A DNA stretch of 64,000 bases from Gemmatimonadales bacterium (GTDB lineage: Bacteria; Gemmatimonadota; Gemmatimonadetes; Gemmatimonadales; GWC2-71-9). The notes beneath the pieces were generated by a model. That model was not told where the DNA came from. It worked only from the letters and a program-made list of their open reading frames with translations, and made no database searches. The stretch lies in assembly GCA_035517615.1 (NCBI GenBank), contig DATIYM010000007.1, forward strand, positions 36,608 through 100,607, written 5' to 3'. This document shows positions 28,044 to 63,811 of this stretch, piece by piece (the first letter of the stretch is position 1; each line of letters opens with the position of its first letter). The translations under genes and the position numbers were made by a program.

Positions 28044-29167
28044 TGTCGCGCGCGTCGCTGCGCCGGCTTTGGCAGATGATCCGCAAGGAGTTCCGCCAGC
28101 TGCGGCGCGACCCGCGTGTGCTCACCATGATGTTGATCTCGCCCCTGCTGCAACTCCTGGTCTACGGCTACGCCGTGACCACCGACGTCCGGAACGTCCG
28201 GACGATCGTGCTCGATCGGGATGGGACGCAAGTCTCACGCGTCGTCACGGACGCGTTGACGGCTTCGGGGTACTTCGAGTTGACTGGATACGCCTCCCGG
28301 CCCCGCGACCTCGTCCGCGCTCTGGACCGCGGCACCGCGCTGATCGCGATCGATATTCCCCGAGGCTTCGCGCAAGCGCTCGCCGACGGCTCGCGGGCGC
28401 CGATCCAGGTGCTCGTGGATGGAACCAACGCGAACACCGCCAACGTCGCGAGTGGCTACGTGGCGCTGATCGCCCGGCACGCCGCTGCTCAATGGACCCC
28501 GCCGGCGGCGAGCCAACCCGCGACCGCCCCCGTGGCGTTCGAGCCGCGGGTGTGGTACAACCCCGGCCTCGAGGCACGGATCTGGTACGTTCCCGGCACC
28601 GCGGGAGTCATCATCGTGAACCTGTGTCTCATCCTCACCGCGCTCGCCGTCGTCCGGGAGCGGGAGGAAGGGACACTCGAGCAGCTCCTGGTCACGCCGA
28701 TCCAACCGCTCGAGATCCTGATCGGCAAGACGCTGCCCGTGGCGACCATCGTGTTGTTCGATGTCGCCATGGTCGCAGCCCTGGGGGCGCTGCTGTTCCA
28801 TGTGCCGTTCCGCGGCAGTGTGCTGGCATTCGGACTGTCGAGCGTGCTGTTCGTATTTGCCGGCCTGGGAGCCGGGCTGCTGCTGTCGACGGTGACGCAA
28901 ACGCAACAGCAGGCATCGATGTCGATGGGGCTCGTGATGATGCCCGTCAACATGCTGTCGGGCTTCGTGTTTCCAATTACGAGCATGCCGCGCGTCGTGC
29001 AGTGGCTGACGCTCCTCAATCCGCTGCGTTATGAGATCGACGTGCTGCGGGGTGTGTTCCTGCGCGGGGTGGGGTTCAGCGCACTGTGGCCGCAATTCCT
29101 GATGCTCGCCCTGATGGCCATTGCGCTCCTGCTCATCGCCGCGCGACGGTTCCAACAGACCCTCTGA
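28043..29167 (+). CDS. ABC-2 type exporter permease (second copy)
   Basis: TGATG overlap. MSRASLRRLWQMIRKEFRQLRRD is paralogous to the preceding permease. Confidence 0.82.
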   Translation: MSRASLRRLWQMIRKEFRQLRRDPRVLTMMLISPLLQLLVYGYAVTTDVRNVRTIVLDRDGTQVSRVVTDALTASGYFELTGYASRPRDLVRALDRGTALIAIDIPRGFAQALADGSRAPIQVLVDGTNANTANVASGYVALIARHAAAQWTPPAASQPATAPVAFEPRVWYNPGLEARIWYVPGTAGVIIVNLCLILTALAVVREREEGTLEQLLVTPIQPLEILIGKTLPVATIVLFDVAMVAALGALLFHVPFRGSVLAFGLSSVLFVFAGLGAGLLLSTVTQTQQQASMSMGLVMMPVNMLSGFVFPITSMPRVVQWLTLLNPLRYEIDVLRGVFLRGVGFSALWPQFLMLALMAIALLLIAARRFQQTL

Positions 29168-29204
29168 AAGAGCGCTCGTGACAGCGGACGGTCGGCGTCC
29201 TCCG

Positions 29205-29840
29205 ATGCCCGAAGACGGCTCGAGACACATTGTGCGGTCACTCGCCTGGGATCTGGCGCTGAACGCCACGATTCCAGTTGCGTGTTACGTGCTCGCGAAG
29301 CGCTACATCTCGTCTTCGGAAATGACGGCGCTGCTTTTCGCGACCGCGTTCCCCACGCTCAAGAGTATCTACGACCTGCTGCGCCATCATGAGGCCGATC
29401 CAGTCACGGTGTTGGTGTTGCTCGGCATTGTGACCAGCATCGTCGCGCTCTGGTTCGGAGGCGGTGCCCGGGTGCTCTTGATCCGGGAATCGTTCTTCAC
29501 CGGTGCATTTGGTATCGCGTGTCTCGTCTCACTCCTCTTCCCGCGGCCGATCATGTTTTATTTCGGACGCCATTTCATCGCGGGCCGCGATCCGGAACAA
29601 CGAAGAATTTTCGAAAGTCGGTGGCAATACCCCAGCGCCCGCCGAGCTCACCGGCTGGTAACGGCCGTGTGGGGAGTAGTGTACGTGGGCGAGTTTGGTC
29701 TGCGCGTGGCGCTGGCGTTTACGCTGCCAACGGCGATCGCTCTCATTCTGGCACCCACGCTGCTCGGTGTTGCGACCATCGCGACGATCATCTGGACGTT
29801 TCGCTACGCGCGAAACGTGCGCGCTGGCATACCAGCGTGA
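29205..29840 (+). CDS. Conserved polytopic membrane protein, unknown function (paralog of 40317..41051)
   Basis: RSLAWDLALNATIPVACYV...LLIRESFFTGAFG...PRPIMFYFGRHF...RLVTAVWGVVYVGEF aligns along its length with the minus-strand paralog. An in-frame GTG at 29178 is an alternative start. Confidence 0.6.
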   Translation: MPEDGSRHIVRSLAWDLALNATIPVACYVLAKRYISSSEMTALLFATAFPTLKSIYDLLRHHEADPVTVLVLLGIVTSIVALWFGGGARVLLIRESFFTGAFGIACLVSLLFPRPIMFYFGRHFIAGRDPEQRRIFESRWQYPSARRAHRLVTAVWGVVYVGEFGLRVALAFTLPTAIALILAPTLLGVATIATIIWTFRYARNVRAGIPA

Positions 29841-29863
29841 TGTCTTGAAGCGAGGGAAAATCG

Positions 29864-30694
29864 ATGAACACAATACTGCTGGCCGCGCACGGCGGCGAGA
29901 GTGCCGAAGGGGCGGTTCGCGTCGCCGCCAAGCTCGCGGATCGACTCAAGACGAAGCTCAACGTGCTCTGCGTCCTCGAGCCGCTCCCGGTTGTGGACTA
30001 CGGCTATTTGGCGACGGTCCCGCCAACCCAGGAGCAGTACGACATGCTATCGGAAGCACTGCGTGGCGCAGTGACCAACCAGTTCCGCCGCTGCGGACAA
30101 GCCGAGTGCGCCCCACTCGTCGAGATCGGGTTTGCAGCGCCGGAAATTGCCCGTGCGGCACGAGAGCAGGGTGCGGCGTTGACCGTCATGGGCCTCGGTC
30201 CCCACCATGCACTCGATCGGGCACTCGGTGGCGAGACGGCGCTGCAGCTGGTGCAGATCGCGAGCACTCCGGTGCTCGCGCTTCCGGGCACCGTGGCCGA
30301 CATCCCACGACGGGTGATGGCCGCGATCGATTTCACGCCAACGAGCATTCGTGCCGCCCGCGTGCCGCTTCTGTGGTTGGGGGCCGGTGACGTACTACAG
30401 CTCGTCCACGTCAGTGCCGCTGAAGCGTCCGGCTCGGACGCTCGACTGGAAAAACTCAAAGCCGAGATGGCGGCGGAAACGCGAGCAACCATCGAAACCC
30501 ACGAGCTGCGGGGAGAGGCTGCGCGCGCGCTGCTCGAGCATGCGGCCGCGTCCCGCAGCGATTTGATTACCGCGGGTACGCACGGCTACGGCATCTGGAA
30601 GCGCCTGACCCTGGGAAGCGTCGCTTCGAAACTGGTTCGTCTTTCGCCCGTGGGCGTATTGATCGCCCCGCTCGGTTCGGTGTCCCAGGCCTGA
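29864..30694 (+). CDS. Tandem universal stress protein (2 x UspA domains)
   Basis: 276 aa with two Usp domains. The C-terminal ATP-binding motif is GTHGYGIWKRLTLGSVASKLV. Confidence 0.85.
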   Translation: MNTILLAAHGGESAEGAVRVAAKLADRLKTKLNVLCVLEPLPVVDYGYLATVPPTQEQYDMLSEALRGAVTNQFRRCGQAECAPLVEIGFAAPEIARAAREQGAALTVMGLGPHHALDRALGGETALQLVQIASTPVLALPGTVADIPRRVMAAIDFTPTSIRAARVPLLWLGAGDVLQLVHVSAAEASGSDARLEKLKAEMAAETRATIETHELRGEAARALLEHAAASRSDLITAGTHGYGIWKRLTLGSVASKLVRLSPVGVLIAPLGSVSQA

Positions 30695-30700
30695 CTGCTG

Positions 30701-31489
30701 CTATTCGGGCCAGCGCAGCAGCGCGGCGAGTCCATCGATCTCGGCCGTCATATTGGGATCGTGCACCACGACCACCGCCGCACCCTGAGCCAGCGCATCG
30801 CCCACGGCGGCGCGGACCAGATCCCCAACCGGAAGCGCGAGCCCTTCCTCCTCGCATTCCGAGCGTGCCAGCGCGAGCCGGCGGGAACGCGTGCAGCGAA
30901 ATCCGGAGAGGCGCGTGCCATCCGCGACCAGCAGCGTCCGAACCTGTCCGTGCCAGAGCGCATGCGTGGTTTCGCGGACCCCGTTCGTGGAGCGTCCCGT
31001 TCCCAACCCGTGCCGCATCGCGGCCACGAGCGCGCGTTCCGTCGCCGGACGCTGCCTAATTCGCGCGGCGTCGACCGCGCTGCGAACGATACTCGGGGTG
31101 ACCGTGGTCGGATTCAGGCGCACGGCGCCGATCAGCCGGTTCGCGAGTGGAGCGGGAAGCGCGCGTACCAGCGCCGACACGGCGGTCTTGGGACCCGCCA
31201 CGAGCAGCGGCTGGTGCGACCGCCGCTCGATCTGCTCGATCCGGCCCAGCACGTTACGGAGATGCCGGCGCTCCTCTTCGTCCACTCGGCCGTGGTACTC
31301 TTGTTCGCCCCAACCGGGTCCACCCTGCCGGTCGCTGTGGAAACGGCCGCCCCGCATGGCGGGAGAATCGAGGCAGGGTAGCTCGGTCGCCTCCCGCTCG
31401 TTGACCTCGAAGAACCGGGCGTGGGCGCGATCGAGAACAATGGCGAGTACCCGCTCGCTCGCTGCATTCGTCGCGGTCGTCATGGTCAC
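30701..31489 (-). CDS. eRF1/Pelota-like protein (bacterial aeRF1 / host-attachment-type)
   Basis: N-terminal [16 protein letters not shown] and [18 protein letters not shown] (host-attachment-like). The C-terminal half has [11 protein letters not shown]...AAVVVVHDP...[10 protein letters not shown], resembling eRF1 domain 3. The start overlaps the groEL stop (GTG 31489 or ATG 31483). Confidence 0.55.
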
Positions 31490-33108
31490 ATCTCCTCTCC
31501 GGCCCCAACGGGCGCCGGTAGCTTCGGTTCGGGAATCTCGGTGAGCGTCGCTTCCGTCAGGAGCAGGATGCTCGCGACGGACACCGCATTTTCGAGAGCA
31601 ATGCGAACTACCTTGGTTGGATCGATGATGCCCGCGTCGAGAAGATTGACGTACGTCCCACGCGCCGCATCGAAGCCAAAGTCGCCCGTGCCCGCGCGCA
31701 TGCGATCGACGACCACCCCGCCATCCACGGCCGAATTCTCCGCGATCTGCCGCGTGGGGATCTCGAGCGCATGCCGGAGGATCAGCATGCCGGTGCGCTC
31801 GTCCCCAGCGGCCTTCTCGGCCTCGCGCTCGAGCGGTTCGATCGCCCGGAGCAGGGAGAGCCCGCCTCCCGGCACGATGCCCTCGGCAATGGCGGCCTTG
31901 GTGGCGCTGATGGCGTCATCGAAGGCTTCCTTCCGGCTCTTGAGCTCCGTCTCCGACGGCGCCCCTACGCGGATCACCGCCACTCCACCGGCCAGCTTGG
32001 CCAGACGTTCCTCGAGCTTTTCCCGATCGTAGTCAGAGGTAGCGTCCTTGATCTGTTTACGCAGCTCGTCACAGCGGCCGGTGATGACGGGTTTCGCCCC
32101 AACGCCCCCGATGATCGTCGTATCCTCTCGGTCGGAGACCACGCGCTCGGCCTGGCCCAGGTCGGCGAGTGAAACGTGCTCGAGCTTGACGCCGATCTCT
32201 TCGGCGATGAGCCGTCCGCCGGTGAGAATCGCCATGTCCTCGAGCATGGCTTTGCGGCGATCGCCAAATCCGGGGGCCTTCACGGCGATACAACCGAGGG
32301 TGCCGCGGATCTTGTTCACGACCAGCGTGGCGAGGGCTTCCCCCTCCACGTCCTCGGCGACAACCAGGAGTCCGCGGCCTTCCTTGGCGACCTGCTCGAG
32401 CAGCGGGAGCAGATCCTTGAGGTTCGTGATGCGTTTCTCGTACAGCAACAGATACGGGTGCTCGAGCGCCGCCTCCATTTTCGTGGGATCCGTCACGAAG
32501 TAGGGCGAGAGATAGCCGCGGTCGAATTGCATCCCCTTGACGACTTCGAGCGCCGTTTCGGTGCCCTTGGCCTCTTCGACGGTAATCGCGCCTTCAGGGC
32601 CCACTTTCTCCACCGCGTCGGCGACCAGCTCGCCGATGGCGGGATCGTTGTGAGCGGAAATAGCCGCGACCTGAGCCTTCTCACGCCGAGTCTTGACCGG
32701 CTGTGAGAGCTGTTTGATCGAATCGACAGTGAGATGTAGGGCGCGATCGAGCCCGCGTTTCAAATCGATGGCGCTCGCACCAGCCGCGACGTTCTTGAGC
32801 CCTTCCGCGAAGATCGCATGGGCCAACAGCGTGGCGGTCGTGGTTCCATCGCCCACGGCGTCCCCGGTTCGAGAAGCGGCCTCGCGGAGCACCTGCGCGC
32901 CGAGGTTCTCCTCCGGGTCCTTCAAGTCGACCTCTTTGGCGATGGTGACTCCGTCGTTGCAGACAAGGGGCGTGCCCCACTTCTTTTCGATCAGCACGCA
33001 CTTCGATTTCGGGCCCAGGGTCACGCGCACGGCGTCGGCCAAGGTGGTGGCCCCGCGCAGGACTTTTTCCCGCGCCGCGGCCTCGAAGGTCAACTGTTTG
33101 TGTGCCAT
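31486..33108 (-). CDS. groEL: Chaperonin GroEL (divergent paralog, no adjacent groES)
   Basis: 540 aa. [28 protein letters not shown]. The C-terminus is ...[10 protein letters not shown] rather than a GGM repeat. Confidence 0.92.
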
Positions 33109-33117
33109 GCGCTCTCC

Positions 33118-33675
33118 TTAGCCCTGCGTCTTTGCCGATTGGCGGGCGGCGAGCCGGACGCTCGAGGCCTGCGGGCCCAGGTCCCCCGGCTCTTCGTGGA
33201 AGTGGACGAGACTGCCGACGTCCAGACGGCCAAATGCGTCATCCAGCACGCTGTGCGCGTCGAAGTAGATGTCACGGCCGTCCGCCGATTCGAGAAATCC
33301 GTAGCCACTGAGCGGGTAGTATTGCGTCACCGTTCCGACCGGCTCGTGCTCGTGCTGTTTCACGGCACCGCGCTGCACGCGGGCGAAGTCCTCGAGACGC
33401 CGCCGCGCGGCGTGGAATGCCTCGTCGAGCGCCGTCCGCAGCTCGTTGGCAGGTTGGCGATTGACGACGACTTCCCCTCCCGGCAACCCCAGATCGAGGC
33501 GCACCTGGTATTGATCGCTATCGCTCAGATGCCTGCGTCGTGGGATCTCGATCGTAACGCCGCAGCTCGTGATACGGCCGTATGCATGATTCAGCCGCTC
33601 GATGCGTTCGCGGACGTCTCGCTCGATTTCCGGAGTGAGGGAGATGGATTTGGCCACAATGCGGGGCGGCAACAT
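33118..33675 (-). CDS. Ribosome hibernation factor (HPF/RaiA, S30AE) fused to a cold-shock domain
   Basis: GGAGG RBS 5 nt before ATG (cat at 33673-33675). The N-terminal half, ISLTPEIERDVRERIERLNHAYGRITSCGVTIE...YQVRLDLGLPGGEVVV...ALDEAFHAARRRLEDF, fits the S30AE fold. The C-terminal half, GTVTQYYPLSGYGFLESADGRDIYFDAHSV...GPQASSVR, fits a CSD. The track start at 33840 is an upstream extension. Confidence 0.7.
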   Translation of the reverse strand: MLPPRIVAKSISLTPEIERDVRERIERLNHAYGRITSCGVTIEIPRRRHLSDSDQYQVRLDLGLPGGEVVVNRQPANELRTALDEAFHAARRRLEDFARVQRGAVKQHEHEPVGTVTQYYPLSGYGFLESADGRDIYFDAHSVLDDAFGRLDVGSLVHFHEEPGDLGPQASSVRLAARQSAKTQG

Positions 33676-33826
33676 GGAACCTCCGTAATTGGATTCCCCG
33701 GTAACCTGCCCCACGAGCCATGAAGAATCGCTGAGATCGCCTGCAAGCTTCTCTCGCATCGCCTTCACCGTCCCCTCACGGGGCCGATGCCAGCATTCGA
33801 AAGTCTCATTCACCCGGAGGATTCGT

Positions 33827-36725: not shown

Positions 36726-37961
36726 TCAGAGTCCGTGAGCTCGATCGGCGCGGGCGGGAAATCGTGGAATGCGCACCATGAACGTCGAGCCGTTGCCAGG
36801 CGTGCTCTCGAGCGCGATCTCGCCTCCCATCATCCGCGCCAGCCGGCGTGACAACGTCAGGGCCAATCCAGTTCCTGCGATCTCCTGCTGTGATCCAACG
36901 TAGGCGTTGAACACTTGCTCGTGGCGTTCCGGCGCAATGCCCGGCCCCTGATCGGCAATACAGAAGGACAGCGTCTCGTCGGTGGCCCGCACGGTGATCT
37001 CGACACGGGCCGTCGGAGGACTGTGTTGAATCGCGTTCCGTAGGAGATTCACGAGGATTTGCCGGACGCGCTTGCAGTCGACCAGGGCAGGGATCGCAGT
37101 GTGAATTGCCGGGATTTCCAGCCGCACACCCGCGCTATCAGCCATGGGCCCGACCGTCCGCAGCGCTTCTGCGAGAATGCTGTCGGCGCCGGCCTCCTCA
37201 GGCGTGATCCGCAGTCGTCCCGCATCCAGGCGCGAGAGATCGAGCAGGTCGTTCAGCAGCTGCACCGAATCCTCGGCTGCTTCCATGGCGTGCAGCGCGG
37301 CGGGAGGTGGCGACTTCCCGCTGCCGCGTACCAGAAGGTCGAGCCACCCGTACACCCCCGTGAGCGCATTGCGCAGTTCGTGATTCATCATCGCGTAGAA
37401 CCGGTCACGCGAAGACTGAAACTCCCGCAGCTGTTGCATCAGCCGGGCATTTTCGATGGCAACGCCGGCTTTGCGCGCCAGCAGCATCGCGATCCGTTCG
37501 TCCTCGGCGCTGAATTCGTCCGCCCCCTGCTTCTCCGTGAGGTAGAGATTTCCGAACACTCGGTGTTGCGCCATGATCGGCACGCCCAGAAACGATCGCA
37601 TGGCCGGATGATGCGACGGGAATCCGTACCGTGCGGCATGCTGCTGGATATCGGCGATGCGCACGGGACGCGGGTCGCGAATCACGACGCCCAGCAGTCC
37701 GTGCCCGCTGGGCAACGCCCCAATTCGGTCGCGCTGTGTGGCCGTTAACCCCGATGTGACAAACTCCACCAGCGCCGTGTGTTGTTCGTTGAGCACTCCC
37801 AGCGCCGCATACCGCGCGCCCACGATATCCCGGGCGGCGTCCGCGACGCGTTGCAACACGCCGCCCAGCGTATGCTCGGCGAAGATATCGAGGCCCGCGG
37901 AAAGCAGTCGCTCGAGCTGCGCTCGCGGTTGGAGCTGTGTGGTGACTCGTGGTGGGGCCAT
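36726..37961 (-). CDS. Soluble GAF-HisKA-HATPase sensor histidine kinase, DevS/DosT-like GAF
   Basis: 411 aa with no TM segments. GAF region: ARYAALGVL...LVEFVTSGL...LPSGHGLLG...YGFPSHHPAMRSFLGVPI...VFGNLYLTEK. H-box MMNHELRNALT. HATPase N/G boxes. Confidence 0.8.
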   Translation of the reverse strand: MAPPRVTTQLQPRAQLERLLSAGLDIFAEHTLGGVLQRVADAARDIVGARYAALGVLNEQHTALVEFVTSGLTATQRDRIGALPSGHGLLGVVIRDPRPVRIADIQQHAARYGFPSHHPAMRSFLGVPIMAQHRVFGNLYLTEKQGADEFSAEDERIAMLLARKAGVAIENARLMQQLREFQSSRDRFYAMMNHELRNALTGVYGWLDLLVRGSGKSPPPAALHAMEAAEDSVQLLNDLLDLSRLDAGRLRITPEEAGADSILAEALRTVGPMADSAGVRLEIPAIHTAIPALVDCKRVRQILVNLLRNAIQHSPPTARVEITVRATDETLSFCIADQGPGIAPERHEQVFNAYVGSQQEIAGTGLALTLSRRLARMMGGEIALESTPGNGSTFMVRIPRFPARADRAHGL

Positions 37962-38145: not shown

Positions 38146-39759
38146 ATGCGAGGTCATTGGTTCGGCTCGATCGCCGGCGCTGGTCTGTGTTGCGGCGTGG
38201 TGTTGTTCATCGGTGGCTGTAAGACAACCGAGGTGCAATACGTCGCGCAGCCGCAATTCAAGCCGGGACCGGATTCGACAAATGGATTCCTCGGCTACTA
38301 CACGGTCAGCACGAAGCAGACGAATTGCGGAAATTGCCATGTGAGTGCGCAGACGTCCTGGATCGGGACGAAGCACGCGCAGGCGTGGGCCGATCTCCAG
38401 GGATCGGGACATGCATCGAGCTCCTGCAATGGATGCCATGCCGTTTCCCAGTTAGGCAATAGCGTCGGACACCCGGCCGGTTATCTGGTCGCCTCCGATT
38501 CGGCCTATCACGACGTGCAATGCGAGAATTGCCACGGCCCAGGGCACACACACGCCTCGAGCCCCACGCAGGCCAACGAACCACTCGCGTCGATCCACGT
38601 GGACACAGGGCTGACCAATGGCTGTGGCGGCTGCCACACCGGAGTCCATGAGCCCTTTGTTGATCAGTGGGTGCAATCCGCGCATGGTTCGGGTCCCGGG
38701 TTCGCGCACGCGGTGGGGAACACGAGCTGCACGCCCTGCCACGAAGGCAAAGCTGCCATGACGGTCAAGTTTCACGTGACGGGAGCGTTCGTCGAGAAGA
38801 CCGATACCTCGAATCAACGGATCGTGTGCACGGTATGCCACGATCCCCACGGGACCGCCGGCTACGAAGGCCAGTTGCGGGCATCGATTGCGACCCCCAC
38901 GACGGACAATCTGTGCGTGTCCTGCCACTCCCGCACGGCCACACCGCCGTGGCCGGTGGCCACAGGCACCTCGGCATCCCGTGGTCCGCACGGCGCGCAA
39001 GGTCTGCTCGTTATCGGTCAGAACGTCGGGTGGATTCCGCCCAACTTCCAATACGATACGAATCAAATCGTCTCGAGTCACGGCACAGCGGCAAATCCGC
39101 GCCTCTGCGCCACCTGCCACGTCTCGACCGAGACGATCACCGATAAGGCGACGGGTGCCTTCCAATTCCAGAGTGTGGGCCATCTGTTCACCGCCGCGTC
39201 GTGCATCGATCCGGGTACCGGCCTGCCTACGACCAGCACGTCGTGTCCCATTGGGCAGCGGGATTTCAATGCGTGCGTCAATTCCGGCTGTCACTTGACC
39301 GCTCAAGCGGCGAGCTCCGCATTCCAGGCGGAGCAGGCCAGTCTCGACAATCTGCTGGATCAACTGTGGGTGGACTCGAACAACAACGGGATCATCGATG
39401 CGACCGACGGCGGGCTGCTGGCGCAGATGGTCGCCCGCGGCAGCGCCGCCGATTCCGCGCAGCTGAATTTCGGCAGCAGCACAACGACCGTCGCGAAGGG
39501 AACGATCTGGAACGCTGCTCTCGGGGCCACCGATGACCGGACCTATTGGCTGGCCGGCACCGTGTTCGGGAAGAGCTGGGCCGCGCACGCGTCCGCGGGC
39601 AACGGCGTCCACAATCCGTTCCTGCTCGAAGCGCTGCTTTCCGCATCCATCGCGGCGCTCCACACGGCGAGCGGCTTGACGCCCACGGTGCCTCTGGACC
39701 TGCGAATCCGGGCGACGCCTCCACCCGGCGTGCGGGTACGCTTGTCTTCGCGGCAGTAA
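38146..39759 (+). CDS. Lipoprotein multiheme cytochrome c (8 CxxCH plus one CxxxxCH)
   Basis: AGAAGGAG RBS before ATG 38146. Lipobox LFIGGC. Heme motifs CGNCH, CNGCH, CENCH, CGGCH, CTPCH, CTVCH, CVSCH, CATCH, and CVNSGCH. Confidence 0.85.
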   Translation: MRGHWFGSIAGAGLCCGVVLFIGGCKTTEVQYVAQPQFKPGPDSTNGFLGYYTVSTKQTNCGNCHVSAQTSWIGTKHAQAWADLQGSGHASSSCNGCHAVSQLGNSVGHPAGYLVASDSAYHDVQCENCHGPGHTHASSPTQANEPLASIHVDTGLTNGCGGCHTGVHEPFVDQWVQSAHGSGPGFAHAVGNTSCTPCHEGKAAMTVKFHVTGAFVEKTDTSNQRIVCTVCHDPHGTAGYEGQLRASIATPTTDNLCVSCHSRTATPPWPVATGTSASRGPHGAQGLLVIGQNVGWIPPNFQYDTNQIVSSHGTAANPRLCATCHVSTETITDKATGAFQFQSVGHLFTAASCIDPGTGLPTTSTSCPIGQRDFNACVNSGCHLTAQAASSAFQAEQASLDNLLDQLWVDSNNNGIIDATDGGLLAQMVARGSAADSAQLNFGSSTTTVAKGTIWNAALGATDDRTYWLAGTVFGKSWAAHASAGNGVHNPFLLEALLSASIAALHTASGLTPTVPLDLRIRATPPPGVRVRLSSRQ

Positions 39760-39867: not shown

Positions 39868-40320
39868 CTATTCGTGCACGCGCGCGATTTCTACAGAACA
39901 GGGCGCGTGGCGCGCGACGGCTTCAGAGACGCTCCCTAGCAGGAAGCGATCTAATCCGGTGCGGCCGTGTGAGCCGACCACGATCACATCGGGATGCCAG
40001 TCCGCTGCAATGTCCAGGATCAGGGCGCGCGGGTCGCCCTCTTCAACTGCGGCGACGACCTCGAGCCCCCCTTTCTTGAGCGTGTCTGCCGCCCTGCGTA
40101 CGAGCGCGTCGGCCTTTCGCAACCGTGCTTCACGCAAGGCATCCAGCTCCGCCGGTTTCCACATGCCCATTTCGGCTCCGGACAGGAGTGATGGAATGAG
40201 AATACCGGCGGGCTCGACAACGTGGAGGATGCGCACCTCGGTACCTGGCCCCCGCGCGAGCACCGCGCGGGTAGCGGCTTCGGACGGCTCCGATTCATCG
40301 ATGGCGAGGAGAACCTTCAT
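39868..40320 (-). CDS. Universal stress protein (single UspA domain)
   Basis: MKVLLAIDESEPSEAA...VVGSHGRTGLDRFLLGSVSEAVARHAPCSVEI. The 347-aa track ORF is an artefactual upstream extension. Confidence 0.85.
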   Translation of the reverse strand: MKVLLAIDESEPSEAATRAVLARGPGTEVRILHVVEPAGILIPSLLSGAEMGMWKPAELDALREARLRKADALVRRAADTLKKGGLEVVAAVEEGDPRALILDIAADWHPDVIVVGSHGRTGLDRFLLGSVSEAVARHAPCSVEIARVHE

Positions 40321-41051
40321 CCGGCGTCGCTTTCTCTTCTGGCTGCGCGGTTGTCGCCCGTCGGGGACGGCAACTGCACAATTTCTGCGCCGATGCGATT
40401 CGCGTACCAGAATGTCCAGACAATGGTGACGATGGTTGCAAGTCCGAGCACGATAGGGCAAACGATGAGCACGACGACGGCTGGCGAGGTGTAAACCAGC
40501 GCAACGCGCAGCATGAACTCGCCGACGAAGACCAATCCCCATGCCGTCGTTACGAGCCGGTAGGCCCGTCGGGGCGCAGGTTTCTCTGCCTGAGCGTTGA
40601 AAGCCAGGCGACGCACCAGGTCTTTGCCGGCCACGAAATACCGCGCGAAATAGAACATCAGCGGCCGGCGCAGCAACAACGAAAGCAAACACAGCGCGCC
40701 AAATGCTCCTGTGGAAAACGACTCGCGAATGAGGAGTATTCGAGGGTCGCCGCCAAGGAATACCGGGACTATGCCCGTCAGAAGTCCGATGGCGACGAGA
40801 ATGGTTACCGGATCCAACTCGCGCCGACGAGACACATCGTACCCGCTCTTCACCAGTGGAAATGCGGTGGCGATCGCAAGCGCCAGGAACTCGGAAGTTG
40901 ACAGGAACCATCGTGCTACGACGTAGCAGACGACCGGCACGGTGGTGTTGAAAACAATGTCCCAGGCCAACGTGCGAATCAACGCCCTATCGGGGGAGTC
41001 GCGAGAGACAGGGGAATGGGGCCGAAGGATGCTCGAGGGTGCCAAGCTCAT
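40317..41051 (-). CDS. Conserved polytopic membrane protein, unknown function (paralog of 29205..29840)
   Basis: RTLAWDIVFNTTVPVVCYV...LLIRESFSTGAFG...RRPLMFYFARYF...RLVTTAWGLVFVGEF. ATGA-coupled to the downstream USP gene. Start at M25 or M18 of the track ORF. Confidence 0.6.
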   Translation of the reverse strand: MSLAPSSILRPHSPVSRDSPDRALIRTLAWDIVFNTTVPVVCYVVARWFLSTSEFLALAIATAFPLVKSGYDVSRRRELDPVTILVAIGLLTGIVPVFLGGDPRILLIRESFSTGAFGALCLLSLLLRRPLMFYFARYFVAGKDLVRRLAFNAQAEKPAPRRAYRLVTTAWGLVFVGEFMLRVALVYTSPAVVVLIVCPIVLGLATIVTIVWTFWYANRIGAEIVQLPSPTGDNRAARRESDAG

Positions 41052-41258
41052 GGAATACTTGCCTCTGATCATGAACACAGGCGCTCCTTGATGATCAAAC
41101 CTTAGAGATCCAATGATGAACACCAGCGCCCTTCGGTCATGAAGATCCGCTTATGGTTCCCAATCCCGATGCAGCGCACGTTTCCGCCAGACTTCAGGAA
41201 GATTTCAGGTGACCTGGAGCAGGTTCGCGGGCGAACCGAACTTCGGATGAGGCGTGTG

Positions 41259-42619: not shown

Positions 42620-42809
42620 GGTCAGAAGAACCTCTTCACGGCACTTTCAGACTCTCCTAACACAACGCTGATTACCCTGTGCTCAAGGGTCGGGCAGTTA
42701 GGAGGTGCTGGTTGCAGTTCCGATACCTCCAGGACTCCGATACTCGGGGCCTTCCGTAAGCGGTCGTTCGCCGCTTGCCCGACCCAATCCCGTTGCTGGG
42801 CCTTGCCAC

Positions 42810-48487: not shown

Positions 48488-48592
48488 GTCCGGCTCATCC
48501 CGCGCTGCAGCGGTTCTTCACGCGGGGTTCACGGACTCCTCAGATGCTCCCGATAGGCTTGAGGATAAGCGAAGCAACCTACGGAGGCGGTT

Positions 48593-57720: not shown

Positions 57721-58859
57721 GAACTCTCGTCCTGAATCTCGGGTCGAGCAGCCAGAAGAGCCGTGTGTATGAATTTGAGGGACCACCCGAGTCCAACCCG
57801 CCGCCGCCCGTGTGGGAACGGAACCTCGAATGGGGCGAAGCACCCGGGAGCCACGGTGCCGCGGTAGCCCAGATTCTCGAGCACGTTCCTTCTCCTCGGA
57901 CGATCGACGTGGTGGGCCATCGCGTGGTGCACGGGGGGCCGAATTACGATGATCCTGTTTGCATCACCGAGACCGTCAAAGCCGAGATCGCGCGCGTCGC
58001 GGAGTACGCTCCGCTGCACAATCGCGCCGCGCTGGACGGGATCGCCGCAGTCGAGCGTCTTCTCGGGCCAGTCCCGCAAGTCGCTGTCTTCGATACTGCG
58101 TTTCATCGGCATCTTCCTCTCGCCGCCGCGGTGTATCCCGGCCCGTACGATTGGTTCAGGACTGGAATCAGGCGCTACGGATTTCACGGCATCAATCATC
58201 AGTACTGCGCGGAGCGCGTAGCCGCGCGGCTCGGGGCGGAAGGGTCCCGCCGGGTGGTCGTCTGCCATCTGGGAAACGGGTGCTCGCTGGCCGCCATTCG
58301 AGACGGCACGAGCATCGACACCACCATGGGATTCACTCCGGTCGATGGCCTGATGATGGGCACGCGCTCGGGGTCGATCGATCCGGGAATTCTCACGTAT
58401 CTGCTCCGGCGATCCTCTCTCGACGCGTCTCAACTTGACGTAGTTCTCAATACGCAGTCAGGCCTGCTCGGCGTATCCGGAGTTTCGGGCGACATGCGAC
58501 GCGTGCTCGCGGCTCGCCGCGCGGGCCATGAACAGGCCACGCTGGCCTTCGACATCTACGTGCATCGGCTGCGTGCGGGAATCGCATCGATGACCGCCAG
58601 TCTCGGCGGTCTCGATGCGCTCGTGTTTACGGCCGGGGTGGGAGAGCACGCGGCGGAGGTGCGCGCAGCAGCCTGTGCGGGGCTCGCGCACCTCGGGGTC
58701 GAGCTCGATCACGAGCAGAATGCTGCGTCGCCGGCCGATGCCGAGATCCAGTCGACGGCGTCGAGAGTCCGCGTGCTGATCATTCGCGCGGAAGAGGATT
58801 GGATGATCGCGAAGGCGTGTTGGAGAGTTCTGGGGGGAAGAGGGAAGGAAGAGGCGTAA
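57702..58859 (+). CDS. ackA: Acetate kinase
   Basis: [25 protein letters not shown], and a C-terminal [10 protein letters not shown]. The 5' end overlaps the xfp stop. Confidence 0.9.
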
Positions 58860-58893: not shown

Positions 58894-59817
58894 CTATGTA
58901 AATGCCGGCTCCGCCCTCGATACTCCGCTTCTCTCCGCTGCCTTGACCGTCACCGGCGCATGGGCCGGCACCACGAGCAATGATGTGGGCAGCTGATTCA
59001 AGAGCCGTTCGGTGACGCTGCCGATCAAGAGGCGATCGACGAAGCCCTTGCCATGCGAGCCTACAACGAGCAGGTCCGCGTGCCAGTCGGCAACTTCGCG
59101 CGCGATCGCGTCGAACGCGAGTCCGTGCCGCGTGATCTTCTCGGCGCTGGGATCGAGCACCAGCGGCCACACCTCGCGCTTCACGTGCTCGTCCAGCAGG
59201 GTGTAATACGACTCCACGTCGTAGGTCGGCGCGTCCGGAAGGATCGGCAGCGGCTCGAACGCGCACATGACGCGCAGCTCGGCTCCCAGCAGCGTCGCGA
59301 ACCGCTCCGCGGTCTTGATCGTCGGCTGCGCCGCATAGGACTGATCCGCGGCCACGAGAATCCGCCGAATCGGCGCGCGCAGCCCGCCCGTTACGAACAG
59401 CGGCACGTCGGTGGTGCGCGCAACATTCAGGGCGGTGCTTCCCGCGAACCAGCGCTCGAGCAGCGTATGATGTTTGCCGCCGAGCACGATCAATCCGGCA
59501 TCGAGCTCGGTCGCGACTTCCTTCAGCACCCAGGTCGGACGCCCGGGACGAATCATGAGGTGCTCCGCAAGCTCGGGTGGAACGATTCCCCACAGTCCAT
59601 GCTGCACTTCGTCCTTCGCCTGGGCCAGGTGCGATTCGCTCAATTCCTGCGCCTGCTCCGGCAGTTCCGCCATCGCGAAGGCGGTCAATACGTCACGCGC
59701 GGCGTGAACGAGCTGGCAGCTCGTTCCCGCGGTGTTCGCCAAGTTGGCGCCGACCGCGCCAGCCCATGCCGCCTCCGGCGAGCTGTCGATACCGACCACA
59801 ATGGGTTTCCACGCCAT
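58894..59817 (-). CDS. Tandem universal stress protein
   Basis: GGAGGG RBS before ATG (cat at 59815-59817). Two Usp domains with GGKHHTLLERWFAGSTALNV and GSHGKGFVDRLLIGSVTERLL. Confidence 0.85.
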   Translation of the reverse strand: MAWKPIVVGIDSSPEAAWAGAVGANLANTAGTSCQLVHAARDVLTAFAMAELPEQAQELSESHLAQAKDEVQHGLWGIVPPELAEHLMIRPGRPTWVLKEVATELDAGLIVLGGKHHTLLERWFAGSTALNVARTTDVPLFVTGGLRAPIRRILVAADQSYAAQPTIKTAERFATLLGAELRVMCAFEPLPILPDAPTYDVESYYTLLDEHVKREVWPLVLDPSAEKITRHGLAFDAIAREVADWHADLLVVGSHGKGFVDRLLIGSVTERLLNQLPTSLLVVPAHAPVTVKAAERSGVSRAEPAFT

Positions 59818-59984
59818 AATGCCCTCCGGAAGAAGTTCCTCACATCGTCTTCGTGTCCTGAACTTCGCGCGCGCACGATGAAGCGAACGTGATGATTGCT
59901 CCAAGAATTCTAGAGGCGGGGTTCATCTCGACTTCATGGCGACGGACGGATATTCCGATCGGACACAGGGGAGGGAGCGGTGCC

Positions 59985-60386
59985 ATGAACGTCGCGGAGC
60001 TGATGCACACCGAGTTGAAGACGATCAGTGTCGATTCCACCATAGGCGATGCCGTGGACGCCTTGGCGGAAGCGCAGGTATCGGCGCTTCCGGTAATCGA
60101 CCGGTTTGGACGCGCTGTCGGCGTGATCTCGACCAAGGATATTCTGAACGCGGAGGCCACGTTTGCGGGGCAGCAGGAACGGGATATACTGTTCGAGCAC
60201 ACGACCGTGCTGGAGATCATGTCCGCCTGGCCGCCGACCATCGGCCCGGAAATCTCGGTTCAGGAAGCGGCGAAACAAATGCTCTATTTCGACGTGCAAC
60301 GGCTGTTCGTCGAGGTGGAGGGAGCCCTGGTGGGCGTGATCTCGCAGAGCGACATCGTCTCGGCCGTGGCGCGCGCCAAGACATAA
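59985..60386 (+). CDS. CBS-pair domain protein
   Basis: GGGGAGGGAG RBS before ATG 59985. 133 aa with two CBS motifs. Confidence 0.85.
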   Translation: MNVAELMHTELKTISVDSTIGDAVDALAEAQVSALPVIDRFGRAVGVISTKDILNAEATFAGQQERDILFEHTTVLEIMSAWPPTIGPEISVQEAAKQMLYFDVQRLFVEVEGALVGVISQSDIVSAVARAKT

Positions 60387-60413: not shown

Positions 60414-61655
60414 GTGCAGGGGAACGATTCCACTGAGGTGGCACGCGTTCGCCGCCGGTTCGAGCTGCTGCTCGATGCCGGCGTCGCGATCTTCTCGGAG
60501 CACACGCTCGCGGCGGTGCTGCAGCGGGTGGTCGACTCCGCTCGAGAAGTGGTCGGTGCCAAGTACGCTGCCCTGGGCGTGCTGTCGGCCGACGGGAAGG
60601 GCCTGTCCGAGTTCGTTACTTCTGGCCTCTCGGACGCCGAGCGCGCGCATATCGGCGACCTGCCGAGTGGTCGCGGGTTGCTCGGTCTCGTGATCCGCGA
60701 GCCCCATCCGATTCGTTCCGCCGATATCAAACACCACCCCCAGCGCTTCGGATTCCCGCCCAATCATCCGCCGATGCAATCGTTTCTCGGCGTCCCGGTG
60801 GCTGTGCAGGGTTGCGTATTCGGCAACCTGTATCTCACCGAAAAGGTTGGAGGGACTGAATTCACCGGCGAAGACGAGGCGATCGCCGTCTTCCTCGCGG
60901 CCAAGGCGGCTGTGGCGGTTGAAAACGCGCGACTCCACGAGAAAAGACAGGAATTGTTGCAGCAGGTGCAGGGCATGCAGCGCCAGCGCGATCTGTTCTT
61001 CGCGATGATGAACCATGAGCTACGCAACGCGCTCACCGGCGTGTATGGCTGGGCGGAGCGGCTCGTGCGCGGCAAGGGAAGCCCGGAATCGAAGGGCCAG
61101 GCGGCTCAGGAGGTCTACGAAGCCGCGGAACGGACCATCACACTGCTCAACAATTTTCTCGATCTCACCCGACTCGATGCGGGGAAAGTGCGCCCCGTAT
61201 TCCGCGATCTCGATGTGCACGGCGAGATCGGCCGGGTGCTCGCGAACGTGCGTCCGGCCGCGGAGGCGAAGCGGATCCTGCTGCACGAAGAGTACGCGAA
61301 CGGCATCGCCCTGGTGCGTACCGATCCCGTGCGCCTGGAGCAGATTCTCGTCAACCTGATGAGCAACGCGATCCGCCACAGTCCGGAAGGGGGCACGATC
61401 ACCGTACGCGCTGAGTCGCAGAATGGCGAGGTCCTGTTTTGCGTGCGGGATCAGGGCCCCGGCATTCCACTCGAGCTGCAGAGCCGCATCTTCGAGCCCT
61501 TCGAGCGGTTCGATCCACATTCCGGTTTGGGCACCGGGCTTGGGCTTCCCGTGTCGCGCCGCCTGGCGGAAGTGTTGGGGGGCCGGCTGACCGTGGAGAG
61601 CGCCCCCGGCGCGGGAGCGGCGTTCACCCTCACCCTGCCGGTGTCCGCTGCATGA
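60414..61655 (+). CDS. Soluble GAF-HisKA-HATPase sensor histidine kinase, DevS/DosT-like GAF (paralog of 36726..37961)
   Basis: AKYAALGVL...LSEFVTSGL...LPSGRGLLG...FGFPPNHPPMQSFLGVPV...VFGNLYLTEK. H-box MMNHELRNALT. G-boxes GTGLGLPV. Confidence 0.8.
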   Translation: MQGNDSTEVARVRRRFELLLDAGVAIFSEHTLAAVLQRVVDSAREVVGAKYAALGVLSADGKGLSEFVTSGLSDAERAHIGDLPSGRGLLGLVIREPHPIRSADIKHHPQRFGFPPNHPPMQSFLGVPVAVQGCVFGNLYLTEKVGGTEFTGEDEAIAVFLAAKAAVAVENARLHEKRQELLQQVQGMQRQRDLFFAMMNHELRNALTGVYGWAERLVRGKGSPESKGQAAQEVYEAAERTITLLNNFLDLTRLDAGKVRPVFRDLDVHGEIGRVLANVRPAAEAKRILLHEEYANGIALVRTDPVRLEQILVNLMSNAIRHSPEGGTITVRAESQNGEVLFCVRDQGPGIPLELQSRIFEPFERFDPHSGLGTGLGLPVSRRLAEVLGGRLTVESAPGAGAAFTLTLPVSAA

Positions 61656-61712: not shown

Positions 61713-62399
61713 ATGAAAATTCTCGTGGTCGAAGACGATCGCAAAGTTGCCGGCTTCATCGAGCAGGGTTTGCGCGAAGAGGGGTATGCGGTGGACGTCG
61801 CGCTCGACGGCGAGCAGGCGACCATGAATGCGCATGTGTACGAGTACGACCTGGTTGTGCTCGATGTCATGCTCCCCAAGAAAACCGGGCTTCAGATCGC
61901 GAGCGAGCTGCGGCGCGAGGGGCGGAAGACGCCGATTCTCATGCTCACCGCGCGCGACACGACCGAAGATGTGGTCCGGGGCCTCGACGCCGGCGCCGAC
62001 GATTACCTCACCAAGCCCTTCAAGTTCGACGAGCTGCTCGCCCGGGTGCGTGCGCTCGTCCGGCGGGGCGGAGCCAGTCGAACGGAGCTCTTGAGCTACG
62101 GGCCGGTCGAGCTCGACCGCTTGAAGCACAAGGCGAAGGTGAACGGCAAGAAGCTCGATCTGACCCCGAAGGAGTTTCAGCTGCTCGAGCACTTCCTGCT
62201 GCGCCCCGAAGAGGTCGTGCGCCGCACGGAGCTGCTCGAGAAAGTGTGGGACCTGCACTTCGACCCGGAGAGCAACGTGGTCGACGTGCACGTGGGGAAT
62301 CTCCGCCGCAAGCTGCACGAGGCGGCGCACGTGGAGCTCCTGCGCACCGTGCGCGGAGTCGGGTTCCGGCTGCAATCCGGCGATCAGGAAGACGAATGA
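61713..62399 (+). CDS. OmpR-family response regulator (CusR/CopR-like)
   Basis: MKILVVEDD, phospho-acceptor DLVVLDVMLP, and a winged-helix C-terminus LTPKEFQLLE...VRGVGF. Confidence 0.9.
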   Translation: MKILVVEDDRKVAGFIEQGLREEGYAVDVALDGEQATMNAHVYEYDLVVLDVMLPKKTGLQIASELRREGRKTPILMLTARDTTEDVVRGLDAGADDYLTKPFKFDELLARVRALVRRGGASRTELLSYGPVELDRLKHKAKVNGKKLDLTPKEFQLLEHFLLRPEEVVRRTELLEKVWDLHFDPESNVVDVHVGNLRRKLHEAAHVELLRTVRGVGFRLQSGDQEDE

Positions 62400-63811
62400 C
62401 GCAGTCGCTCCGGCGGACACTCGCCGTGCGGTTCGCGGCGACGATGGCCGCCGGACTGGCGCTCGTGTCGGGAGCGTTGTTCCTCGGCATGTCGTATCTC
62501 ATGCACAAGCAGTTCGACCAGGCGCTGGCCGGGGCCGAAGTGCTCGTGGCGGGCCAGGTCGAGAACGGATCCCCCCCTTCGATTTCCGACTTGCTGACCT
62601 CCGCGGATCCGGCGGCCTATGCGCGCACCGTGAACCGCTACGCCGCGCTGCGCCGGCCTTCCGGGGAGCTGATCCGCGCGTTCCCCCTGATCGCGAGCGA
62701 CCTCCCCGTTGATTCGGCGGCGCTCGAGCGCGCCCGCGTCGGGTCGCCGATTTGGGTCGACGGTCTCTGGAAGGGCCAGCCGGTCCGAAGCCTTTATGGG
62801 ATCGTCCCCGAAGCCGGCACCGGAGCCCAGCAGGTGATGCAGGTCGCGGCATACCTCGGCCCGCTGCATCACACCGAAAACCTCGTGCTCCTCGCGCTTG
62901 CAGGCGTGGTGGTGCTCGGCACCGTGGCGACGCTCGTGGGCGGCTGGAATTTCGTGGGCTCCGCGGTTGAGCCCGTCCTCGAGATTACCCGGCAGGCGAC
63001 GCAGATCGAAGCCGGGACGCTGTCGCGGCGCATTGCGGCACATGCCGGAACCGACGAGTACCGCGGGCTCGTGGCCGTGCTCAATCGCATGCTCGAGCGG
63101 CTCGACAACGCCTTCCGAACGCAACGCCGTCTTACGGCCGACGTGGGGCATGAGCTGCGCACGCCGCTCACGGCATTGCGCGGCGAGATCGAGGTCGCGT
63201 TGCGCACCGATCGATCGCCGCGCGAGTATCAGCTGGTATTGAGGAGCGCGCTCGAGGAAATCGCCCATCTCAGCGCGATGAGCGACGACCTGCTGCTCAT
63301 TACGCGCGCCGAGAGTCATCAAGTCGAGCCGCATCGCGTCCCCACCGATCCCAACGCGCTGGTGCGGGCCAGCGTCGCGCAGGTGCGCCGCCGGCTGGAA
63401 GAGAAGGATCTGCGACTCGACGAGTCGCTCGATCGGGCCGTCCAGGACGTGGCGCTCGACCCGGAGCTCGTGTCGCGCGCGCTCGATCACCTGCTCGATA
63501 ACGCGGTGAAGTACACGCCGGAGGGCGGGCGCATCCGCGTCACGACCGAGCCGGCGGCCCCCGCCACGCGCGGCGTCCGGTTCGGAGTCGAGAATACGGG
63601 CTCCGCGATCCCTTCCGCGGACCTGCCGCACATTTTCGAGCCGTTCTTTCGCGCGGACCAGTCGCGGACGCGGGCCGGCGGCGGCCCCGGGTTGGGGCTC
63701 GCCCTGGTCGCGGCAATTGCCGAGCTGCATGGCGGGGCGGCACGCGCCTCGAACCGCAACGGCAGCAGCGTGCGGCTGGAAGTGGAGATCCCCGCGCCGG
63801 CAGCGGCCTGA
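62396..63811 (+). CDS. Membrane sensor histidine kinase with periplasmic loop and HAMP (CusS-like)
   Basis: ATGA overlap with the regulator stop. Two TM segments flank a ~150-aa loop. H-box DVGHELRTPLT, and the C-terminal G2 box GGPGLGLALV. Confidence 0.85.
   Translation: MTQSLRRTLAVRFAATMAAGLALVSGALFLGMSYLMHKQFDQALAGAEVLVAGQVENGSPPSISDLLTSADPAAYARTVNRYAALRRPSGELIRAFPLIASDLPVDSAALERARVGSPIWVDGLWKGQPVRSLYGIVPEAGTGAQQVMQVAAYLGPLHHTENLVLLALAGVVVLGTVATLVGGWNFVGSAVEPVLEITRQATQIEAGTLSRRIAAHAGTDEYRGLVAVLNRMLERLDNAFRTQRRLTADVGHELRTPLTALRGEIEVALRTDRSPREYQLVLRSALEEIAHLSAMSDDLLLITRAESHQVEPHRVPTDPNALVRASVAQVRRRLEEKDLRLDESLDRAVQDVALDPELVSRALDHLLDNAVKYTPEGGRIRVTTEPAAPATRGVRFGVENTGSAIPSADLPHIFEPFFRADQSRTRAGGGPGLGLALVAAIAELHGGAARASNRNGSSVRLEVEIPAPAAA

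Follow-up and report, generated by a model that had tools for sequence, protein, structure and literature searches.

A DosT-like, predicted haem-binding GAF domain joined to a HisKA transmitter in two sensor kinases of a Gemmatimonadales bacterium

The 64,000 nucleotide stretch of Gemmatimonadales bacterium DNA described here (positions 36,608 to 100,607 of contig DATIYM010000007.1, assembly GCA_035517615.1; "the window" below, in whose coordinates all positions are given) encodes two paralogous sensor kinases, called K1 and K2 (Table 1). Judged by sequence, both are DosT-like at the sensor end, with a single GAF domain of the kind that holds haem in the mycobacterial sensors DosT and DevS/DosS, but three output features of DevS/DosT are missing from them: the second GAF domain (GAF-B), the HisKA_3 transmitter and the NarL-type partner regulator. 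It is probable, taking the proposed mechanism as a whole, that K1 and K2 are DosT-like haem gas sensors that drive a hypoxia or dormancy type regulon.

The GAF domain and its predicted haem pocket

A phmmer search of all PDB chains places K1 residues 34-178 on the GAF-A domain of DosT (2vzw, E = 6.3e-41); the GAF-A structures of DevS (2w3d, 2y79 and 2y8h, E ~1e-35 to 1e-36) come next, and after these come kinase cores. In a four-way alignment, which needs only one 1-residue indel, the K1 and K2 domains are 49 and 53% identical to DosT GAF-A, respectively, and 44-45% identical to that of DosS. The original prediction, which was made without database searches, had recognized a series of motif strings of DevS/DosT GAF-A, and every one that it quoted is present. 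It had also located the proximal haem ligand in a GFPxxHPxM segment, and the histidine of that segment, His118 in both kinases (GFPSHHPAM in K1 and GFPPNHPPM in K2), aligns without gaps to DosT His147 and DosS His149. The HPxMxxFLGVP motif is present in 80 of 80 surveyed loci.

Roles were assigned to individual pocket residues from a review (PMC4082495) and a 2025 structural preprint (PMC12154584) and mapped through the four-way alignment, and their conservation was read from an alignment of 24 relatives (A1). In DosS, His149 is the proximal ligand, Tyr171 contacts the distal ligand, Phe98 and Ile121 form part of the pocket, and Glu87, whose DosT counterpart is Gly85, has been proposed to restrict the channel (PMC4082495, PMC12154584). 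The proximal His118 of K1 and K2 is at least 90% conserved. Tyr140, the gap-free equivalent of DosS Tyr171 and DosT Tyr169, is invariant, and so are Phe67 (DosS Phe98), Leu90 (DosS Ile121) and Gly55, which occupies the Glu87/Gly85 position, so that both kinases resemble DosT there. At the seven positions that discriminate DosS from DosT (PMC4082495), the DosT residue is found four times in K1 and five times in K2, and the DosS residue is found in neither. Given this resemblance, both GAF domains very probably bind haem.

In a neighbour-joining tree (without bootstrap) the GAF domains group, in line with the original prediction, with the DosS/DosT family and not with non-haem GAFs; those of the Gemmatimonadota, including K1 and K2, make up one clade, which lies beside an actinobacterial clade that contains DosS and DosT. 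The DosT-like GAF family has 1681 cluster representatives at E <= 1e-30, a figure that describes family size only, its top rows being multi-GAF giants with additive scores. Such a domain is also found in giant proteins of up to 3792 amino acids with 10-18 GAF-like stretches (P0248, P0249, P0347 and others), and as apparently stand-alone proteins of 200-290 amino acids on long contigs (P0154, P0221 and P0230). A word-indexed homologue search with the GAF domain alone was rejected as a source of architecture statistics, as all of its proteins were shorter than 290 amino acids and most were fragments.

The kinase core and the linker

K1 and K2 are 50% identical over ~397 residues (E = 7e-129), and Pfam gives both of them one GAF_2/GAF domain, HisKA (PF00512; E = 4e-10 and 1.5e-13 for the pair) and HATPase_c, with no GAF-B and no match to HisKA_3 (PF07730); their H-box reads HELRNAL, not RDLHD. 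Neither protein has a transmembrane segment, the 19-residue Kyte-Doolittle mean peaking at 1.07 in K1 and 1.57 in K2, whereas a neighbouring membrane kinase reaches 2.69. The paralogy and common architecture that had been predicted are borne out in this way, with both open reading frames (ORFs) at the positions and on the strands first given, and the prediction was also right to see an OmpR-partner type of H-box in HELRNALT, since the DHp domain is PF00512 and the adjacent regulator is of the OmpR winged-helix type. With its H, N, G1, F and G2 boxes intact, the K1/K2 transmitter is by sequence of the HisKA class (EnvZ/HK853-like). The top Foldseek matches of the K1 core are HK853, WalK/YycG, CpxA and ZraS; the list for full-length K1 is filled by kinase cores and phytochromes and is uninformative on the GAF domain.

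No NCBIfam model claims K1 or K2, and their nearest named relatives are proteins of Gemmatimonadales metagenome-assembled genomes (MAGs) annotated only as "GAF domain-containing sensor histidine kinase", which makes the source an uncultured member of that order, one of the soil. Independent pipelines have called the same 411 amino acid K1, flanked by the same genes, on 17 public metagenome contigs.

The haem histidine and the H-box histidine are 76 residues apart in K1 and 83 in K2, compared with ~240-250 in two-GAF relatives. The GAF-to-DHp linker of K2 and of many relatives is exactly seven residues longer than that of K1, an indel that splits the family; as this is exactly one heptad, the change should be tolerable for a coiled-coil signalling helix. 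An AlphaFold2 (AF2) model of K1 (mean pLDDT 83) has an unbroken helix at residues 152-213, which runs from the last GAF helix through His194.

The partner regulator and the K2 operon

The K2 gene stops 57 bp upstream of a gene on the same strand for an OmpR/PhoB-family response regulator (61713..62399; Response_reg E = 1e-30, Trans_reg_C E = 9e-26), in which the acidic pocket EDD, the phospho-acceptor D52 (LDVMLP), the conserved T and KPF can all be read. Relatives were sought by tblastn in one genome per species, and the window proteins were then mapped onto the loci obtained. An OmpR-type regulator 70-88% identical to the one in the window adjoins the GAF kinase in 21 of the 23 Gemmatimonadota loci; in 20 of the 23 the two share a strand and the regulator follows 50-140 bp downstream, in L006 it is divergent, and the two exceptions are L016, where the locus ends at the kinase, and L013, which shows none. 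The original prediction had called both kinases orphans. Because the pair is kept in 21 of 23 loci, K2 is instead part of a conserved kinase-regulator operon, and the term fits only K1, which has no partner in the window. No NarL-type regulator was found among the ~49 window ORFs scanned.

The likely operon runs CBS-K2-regulator-HK3. A CBS orthologue is found upstream of the kinase gene in several loci, and a tandem universal stress protein (USP) gene is divergent from the operon, a USP/kinase layout that recurs in L010, L016, L017, L019, L022 and L023. HK3 is a membrane kinase whose ATG overlaps the regulator stop codon (ATGA at 62396..62399). An HK3-like kinase follows the regulator in 9 of 21 loci, and the remaining 12 have no kinase beside it but the GAF kinase. 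The CusS/CopS model TIGR01386 gives HK3 238.2 bits against a cutoff of 292.55, the match extending from HAMP onward and leaving the periplasmic domain uncovered, and the CusR/CopR model TIGR01387 gives the regulator 231.8 bits against 279.2. DHp helix 1 carries TGVYGW in K1 and K2 and TALRGE in HK3.

Distribution and comparison with known systems

By their H-boxes, the 80 best loci fall into three architectures. Class A, with one GAF domain and HisKA, comprises all 23 Gemmatimonadota loci, one Bacillota MAG and Planomonospora corallina. Class B, with one GAF domain and HisKA_3, is found in Acidimicrobiia, Dormibacteria, Acidobacteriota and Chloroflexota, and has NarL/GerE regulators as neighbours at the three loci examined with Pfam (L039, L048 and L074). 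Class C is the classical DevS form with two GAF domains and HisKA_3, found in Streptomyces, Solirubrobacterales and mycobacteria. A HisKA architecture for the Acidimicrobiia, Chloroflexota and other tblastn matches was considered and rejected, as Pfam gives them HisKA_3 and NarL-type partners. The original prediction had contrasted the single GAF domain of K1 and K2 with the two of DevS/DosT, but having one GAF domain does not make them special, as single-GAF HisKA_3 kinases are common in the four class B groups; going by sequence, what distinguishes K1 and K2 is the HisKA/OmpR output, not GAF number. Class B kinases (for example those of L028, L039, L048, L056 and L063) are like K1 and K2 in having one haem-type GAF domain joined directly to the transmitter by a linker of similar length, and L048 also has phosphoketolase and acetate kinase genes nearby, as does the window, but with their HisKA_3 they amount to DevS minus GAF-B and are not rewired. 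Since the related haem GAFs of Actinomycetota, Chloroflexota and other phyla use HisKA_3 and NarL-type regulators, the Gemmatimonadota form is a rewired variant.

The Planomonospora corallina protein (strain TBRC 4489, a cultured actinomycete; L027:10001-11242) has a DosT-type GAF domain followed by a HisKA-type H-box, HDLKSPL, and no match to the distal-Tyr pattern. Its GAF domain nests among Streptomyces class C sequences in the neighbour-joining tree, which suggests an independent fusion to HisKA.

K1 and K2 thus share with DosT (Rv2027c) and DevS/DosS (Rv3132c) a homologous GAF-A, the same proximal His and distal Tyr, and solubility, and as with DosS-DosR and DosT there are two paralogous sensors, one beside the regulator and the other elsewhere. 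The linked gene classes are also similar to those of the DosR system (USPs, a CBS pair, HPF/S30AE and an Rv2629-like factor, with Hsp20 in relatives). Unlike DevR/DosR, which is of the NarL/LuxR family, the partner is an OmpR/PhoB winged-helix protein; the DosR box is a palindrome, whereas the candidate operator described below is a triple direct repeat; and, unlike in the DosS/DosT system, a third, membrane kinase lies in the operon and the host belongs to the Gemmatimonadota instead of the Actinomycetota. Other haem-based sensor kinases with HisKA cores are FixL (PAS-haem) and AfGcHK (globin-coupled), in which likewise a cytoplasmic haem gas sensor controls the kinase core through a helical linker; their PAS and globin folds differ from the GAF fold of K1 and K2, as do their partners and regulons. 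The full-text literature yielded no description of a HisKA/OmpR system with a DosT-type GAF, nor of one in Gemmatimonadota, although subscription journals are thinly covered there and a prior description is possible; that literature does describe DevS-type systems of mycobacteria and of Streptomyces/Microlunatus, and the haem GAF of Nostoc All4978.

Candidate operator and putative regulon

Ten loci have in common, upstream of the kinase gene, a triple direct repeat with an 11 bp period, TGAAG-N6-TGAAR-N6-GGAAK, which ends ~45 to 110 nt ahead of the start of the kinase match. Direct repeats phased at 11 bp are typical of OmpR/PhoB regulators. A position weight matrix (PWM) built from the ten sites has a background of 0.054 hits per kb per strand. 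Outside its training set and in the correct orientation, it marks the candidate box aTGAAGcgaacgTGATGattgctCCAAGa ahead of the window CBS gene, the tandem USP genes of L012 (21.5 bits) and L020 (17.9 bits), the K1-type kinase gene of L081 (14.8 bits) and the K2 orthologue of L001 (10.7 bits); within the training loci it also marks other genes, namely an Hsp20-like gene in L017 (26.9 bits) and a PPDK gene in L023 (13.7 bits). Two further candidate boxes in the window precede the HPF-CSD/GroEL/Balon-like operon, this one being likewise an independent hit of the right strand and spacing, and, more weakly, a divergent BON gene (Table 1); the start codons of the HPF-CSD and BON genes were fixed by alignment and sequence. 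The triple repeat supports, but does not prove, autoregulation and a stress regulon, the assignment of the box to this regulator and the membership of the regulon both being putative.

The gene content of the window is consistent with such a regulon. It includes three USP, three CBS-pair and two BON-domain genes, together with genes for PPDK, phosphoketolase, acetate kinase and [NiFe]-hydrogenase and a weak, sub-threshold nitroreductase-like match. USP, CBS and HPF-type gene classes belong to the mycobacterial DosR regulon. The window CBS and USP proteins were considered as orthologues of Rv2626c and Rv2623, an assignment that was rejected when PDB searches gave generic family matches alone; because of this the parallel with the DosR regulon is one of gene classes, the Balon/Rv2629-like protein excepted. 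In Gemmatimonas phototrophica lowered O2 induces USP, cbb3 oxidase and hemN, with no regulator assigned (PMC11406998).

Several other observations concern the repeat and the upstream regions. Intergenic runs of 11-bp-phased TGAAG-like repeats are present at 48493-48543 (minus strand, four to five units) and 42633-42661 (minus strand), oriented away from the downstream YceI-like and DUF3300 genes. Weak PWM matches (8.9 and 11.1 bits) at 438-508 lie ahead of the genes for the small and large [NiFe]-hydrogenase subunits (617-3464), through which the hydrogenase may be tied to the same regulator. An octamer common to the K1/cytochrome and USP/CBS intergenic regions, GAAGTTCC, was dropped as a candidate (4 exact occurrences against 1.4 expected, and with one mismatch 46 against 37, which is no enrichment). 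Enumeration of 9-mers over the USP/kinase divergent regions returned solely GC-rich coding words and was replaced by the aligned upstream regions and the PWM. A TAnnTT (-10-like) hexamer stands 6-7 nt before the kinase ATG in L011, L014, L017, L018, L019 and L022, and this position suggests leaderless kinase transcripts there; the CBS-K2 operon of the window has a GGAGG-type ribosome-binding site instead.

The neighbourhood and origin of K1

As the original prediction had it, K1 lacks an adjacent regulator and is divergent from a multihaem cytochrome gene; in the window no regulator gene adjoins it, and an M23 peptidase gene converges on it 40 bp downstream. In three genomes (the window, L021:13539-14870 and L081:531-2222) a gene for a lipoprotein multihaem cytochrome c is found no more than 10 kb from such a kinase gene. 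Members of the K1 subfamily are 59-65% identical to K1. In two genomes the K1 orthologues (P0003 and P0006) are followed by genes for stand-alone receivers of 117-123 amino acids (L081:11309-11680 and L082:9166-9519), which have no counterpart beside the window K1. They are 46-47% identical to the receiver domain of the regulator at 61713..62399, but the phospho-acceptor Asp is replaced by Ala (LLAVVLPK and LLALVVPK) and EDD by EHP, and by these replacements they are likely pseudo-receivers. The presence of regulator-like receivers beside K1 orthologues suggests that K1 arose by an old duplication of the kinase-regulator pair, after which the regulator copy degenerated. By analogy with DosT beside DosS, K1 is a diverged paralogue that probably feeds the same regulator as K2.

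Proposed mechanism and alternatives

In the proposed mechanism K1 and K2 would be cytoplasmic, and each GAF domain would hold one b-type haem through His118, with Tyr140 forming a hydrogen bond with the distal ligand. A distal channel left open at Gly55, as in DosT, would favour a stable oxy-ferrous form, from which direct sensing of O2 is predicted, with NO and CO as further ligands. We infer the identity of the ligand and the on/off polarity of the kinases, the latter on the model of DosT: with O2 bound or the iron ferric the kinase would be off, and in the deoxy and the NO- or CO-bound ferrous forms it would be on. The signal would pass along the continuous helix from the last GAF helix through DHp helix 1 to the HisKA core (His194 in K1 and His201 in K2). 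K2 would then phosphorylate the OmpR-type regulator, to which the translationally coupled HK3 would add a further input, and the regulator would bind the triple repeat and activate its own operon, the HPF-CSD/GroEL/Balon-like operon and the tandem USP genes, as well as Hsp20 in relatives. The resulting programme would correspond in function to the DosR dormancy regulon. In its fullest form, a Gemmatimonadota hypoxia/dormancy programme in which two haem-GAF kinases and a membrane kinase converge on the OmpR-type regulator and, through the triple repeat, on USPs, Hsp20, HPF-CSD, the Balon/Rv2629-like factor, CBS and possibly phosphoketolase/acetate kinase and hydrogenase, this idea is put forward tentatively and has slightly less than an even chance of being right.

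A number of points weigh against this interpretation. Haem binding, ligand response and phosphotransfer are steps that we infer, and AF2 does not model a cofactor. The G2 box of K1 is GTGLAL where its relatives have GLGL. The K1/cytochrome intergenic region, which should hold the K1 promoter, contains no regulator box of at least 7 bits in the PWM scan. The enrichment of boxes in the window is modest, with 8 hits of at least 9 bits compared to 0-5 (mean ~1.5) in 20 local shuffles, and several of the hits (42633 and 48504) do not face the nearest gene but point the other way. Compared with proteins of the mycobacterial DosR regulon, CBS and USP give matches at the level of the family only, not at that of orthologues. 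Finally, since the regulator and HK3 genes overlap, both proteins are nearest to CusRS, and DHp helix 1 differs between the kinases, the sharing of one regulator is not a given.

These last three features are what an alternative would build on in which the regulator at 61713..62399 is run essentially by HK3, the two forming an envelope or metal system like CusRS, while K1 and K2 signal elsewhere or act as phosphatases or modulators and their adjacency reflects co-expression. The ATGA overlap, the heavy-metal CusRS/CopRS-type models as best NCBIfam matches of both proteins, and the different helix-1 residues all fit it, but both NCBIfam scores fall under their family cutoffs, and HK3-like kinases occur in just 9 of the 21 regulator loci, while the pairing of GAF kinase and regulator is found in all 21 and stands alone in 12; we regard HK3 control as improbable. 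A signal other than O2 tension is a somewhat stronger contender, though still an unlikely one. The same haem-GAF kinase might respond to redox state (ferric/ferrous, which has been proposed for DosS) or to NO, CO or H2S, with denitrification or soil trace gases as examples of a source, and its polarity might then differ from that of DosT. DosS and DosT bind O2, NO and CO, gas versus redox sensing is still debated for DosS (PMC4082495), and DosS binds H2S as well (PMC9062744); redox and trace-gas metabolism is also close at hand in the window, with the [NiFe]-hydrogenase and the multihaem cytochrome. The Gly at the Glu87 position and the mostly DosT-type discriminating residues, on the other hand, favour a stable oxy complex and O2 sensing.

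Least probable is that the GAF domains carry no haem, and instead bind another small molecule or serve as dimerization modules, their likeness to DosT being a matter of ancestry. The GAF superfamily does bind many ligands, and a cofactor is invisible to sequence analysis, but K1 and K2 are 49-53% identical to a solved haem domain, and the axial His (at least 90%), the distal Tyr and the pocket Phe and Leu are kept in a family that is otherwise only ~50% identical, a selective conservation of the pocket that would be hard to explain without a cofactor.

Other features of the window

The putative target operon encodes two different ribosome hibernation factors, the HPF (S30AE)-cold-shock-domain (CSD) fusion and the Rv2629/Balon-like factor, within one apparent operon that has a candidate regulator box upstream. 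A phosphoketolase (Xfp) gene is found no more than a few kb from a DosT-type GAF kinase gene in the window (55345-58859) and at L048:11197-14810, L071, L038 and L055, with acetate kinase beside Xfp in three of these five cases; this linkage recurs across Actinomycetota and the Gemmatimonadales window. Two paralogous two-gene cassettes, at 29121-30694 (plus strand) and 39868-41123 (minus strand), each consist of a USP gene and a gene for a multi-pass membrane protein of ~240-270 amino acids, without a Pfam family, that has the common motif ...LAWD...P...CYV... No RNA genes turned up when the window was scanned with Rfam and for tRNAs.

Table 1. Features of the K1 and K2 systems and their putative targets, in window coordinates
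Feature	Position	Strand	Evidence
Putative target operon: HPF(S30AE)-CSD fusion, GroEL, Balon-like factor	30701..33675	-	Pfam, NCBIfam, PDB
Rv2629/Balon-like ribosome hibernation factor	30701..31489	-	NF052289 E = 1e-14 (below cutoff); 8v9k_z E = 5e-5
GroEL	31486..33108	-	Pfam
HPF(S30AE)-cold-shock-domain fusion	33118..33675	-	Pfam
Weaker candidate regulator box, divergent BON gene	33720..33748	+	PWM 7.1-11.7 bits
Candidate regulator box, 76 nt before HPF-CSD start (33675)	33751..33779	-	PWM 16.4 bits
K1, soluble sensor kinase, 411 aa, GAF-HisKA-HATPase_c	36726..37961	-	ORF, Pfam
K1 HATPase_c (residues 296-400); N, G1 (DQGPGI), F and G2 (GTGLAL) boxes	36762..37076	-	Pfam, alignment A1
K1 HisKA/DHp (residues 185-248), H-box NHELRNALT	37218..37409	-	Pfam PF00512, AF2, Foldseek
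K1 phospho-acceptor His194 codon	37380..37382	-	H-box
K1 GAF (residues 30-170), DosT GAF-A type	37452..37874	-	PDB phmmer, alignments
K1 codon of predicted distal Tyr140	37542..37544	-	Alignment
K1 codon of predicted proximal His118	37608..37610	-	Alignment
Lipoprotein multihaem cytochrome c (8 CXXCH + 1 CX4CH), divergent from K1	38146..39759	+	ORF, Pfam, sequence
Tandem universal stress protein, divergent from CBS-K2 operon	58894..59817	-	Pfam
Candidate regulator box, 79 nt before CBS start	59878..59906	+	PWM 13.0 bits, outside training set
CBS-pair protein, first gene of likely CBS-K2-regulator-HK3 operon	59985..60386	+	Pfam
K2, K1 paralogue, 413 aa, same architecture	60414..61655	+	ORF, Pfam
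K2 GAF	60498..60923	+	Alignment
K2 His118 codon	60765..60767	+	Alignment
K2 Tyr140 codon	60831..60833	+	Alignment
K2 HisKA	60987..61184	+	Pfam, alignment
K2 His201 codon	61014..61016	+	Pfam, alignment
K2 HATPase_c	61320..61643	+	Pfam, alignment
OmpR/PhoB-family response regulator (receiver + winged helix), conserved GAF-kinase partner gene	61713..62399	+	Pfam
HK3, membrane HAMP-HisKA kinase	62396..63811	+	ORF, Pfam

Implications

Among GAF-type haem gas sensors, DosS and DosT serve as the reference, and both are drug targets. How the ligand state is relayed in them from GAF-A through GAF-B to the HisKA_3 core is still unclear (PMC4082495), and a haem GAF joined by one helix to the well-understood HisKA core, with linker variants that differ by one heptad, offers a simpler model of that relay. 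If the proposed reading is true, the one-GAF/HisKA form would be a minimal natural system for the relay from haem ligation to kinase core, and the haem GAF-A domain would be a portable gas sensor that has on at least two occasions been fused to transmitters of different classes. With the same sensor on another regulator family, still among dormancy-type genes, these kinases are an instance of two-component rewiring that has kept its physiological theme, and the sensor, regulator and candidate operator motif together give a concrete, testable handle on the way in which low-oxygen persistence may arise in a dominant, poorly cultured soil phylum.

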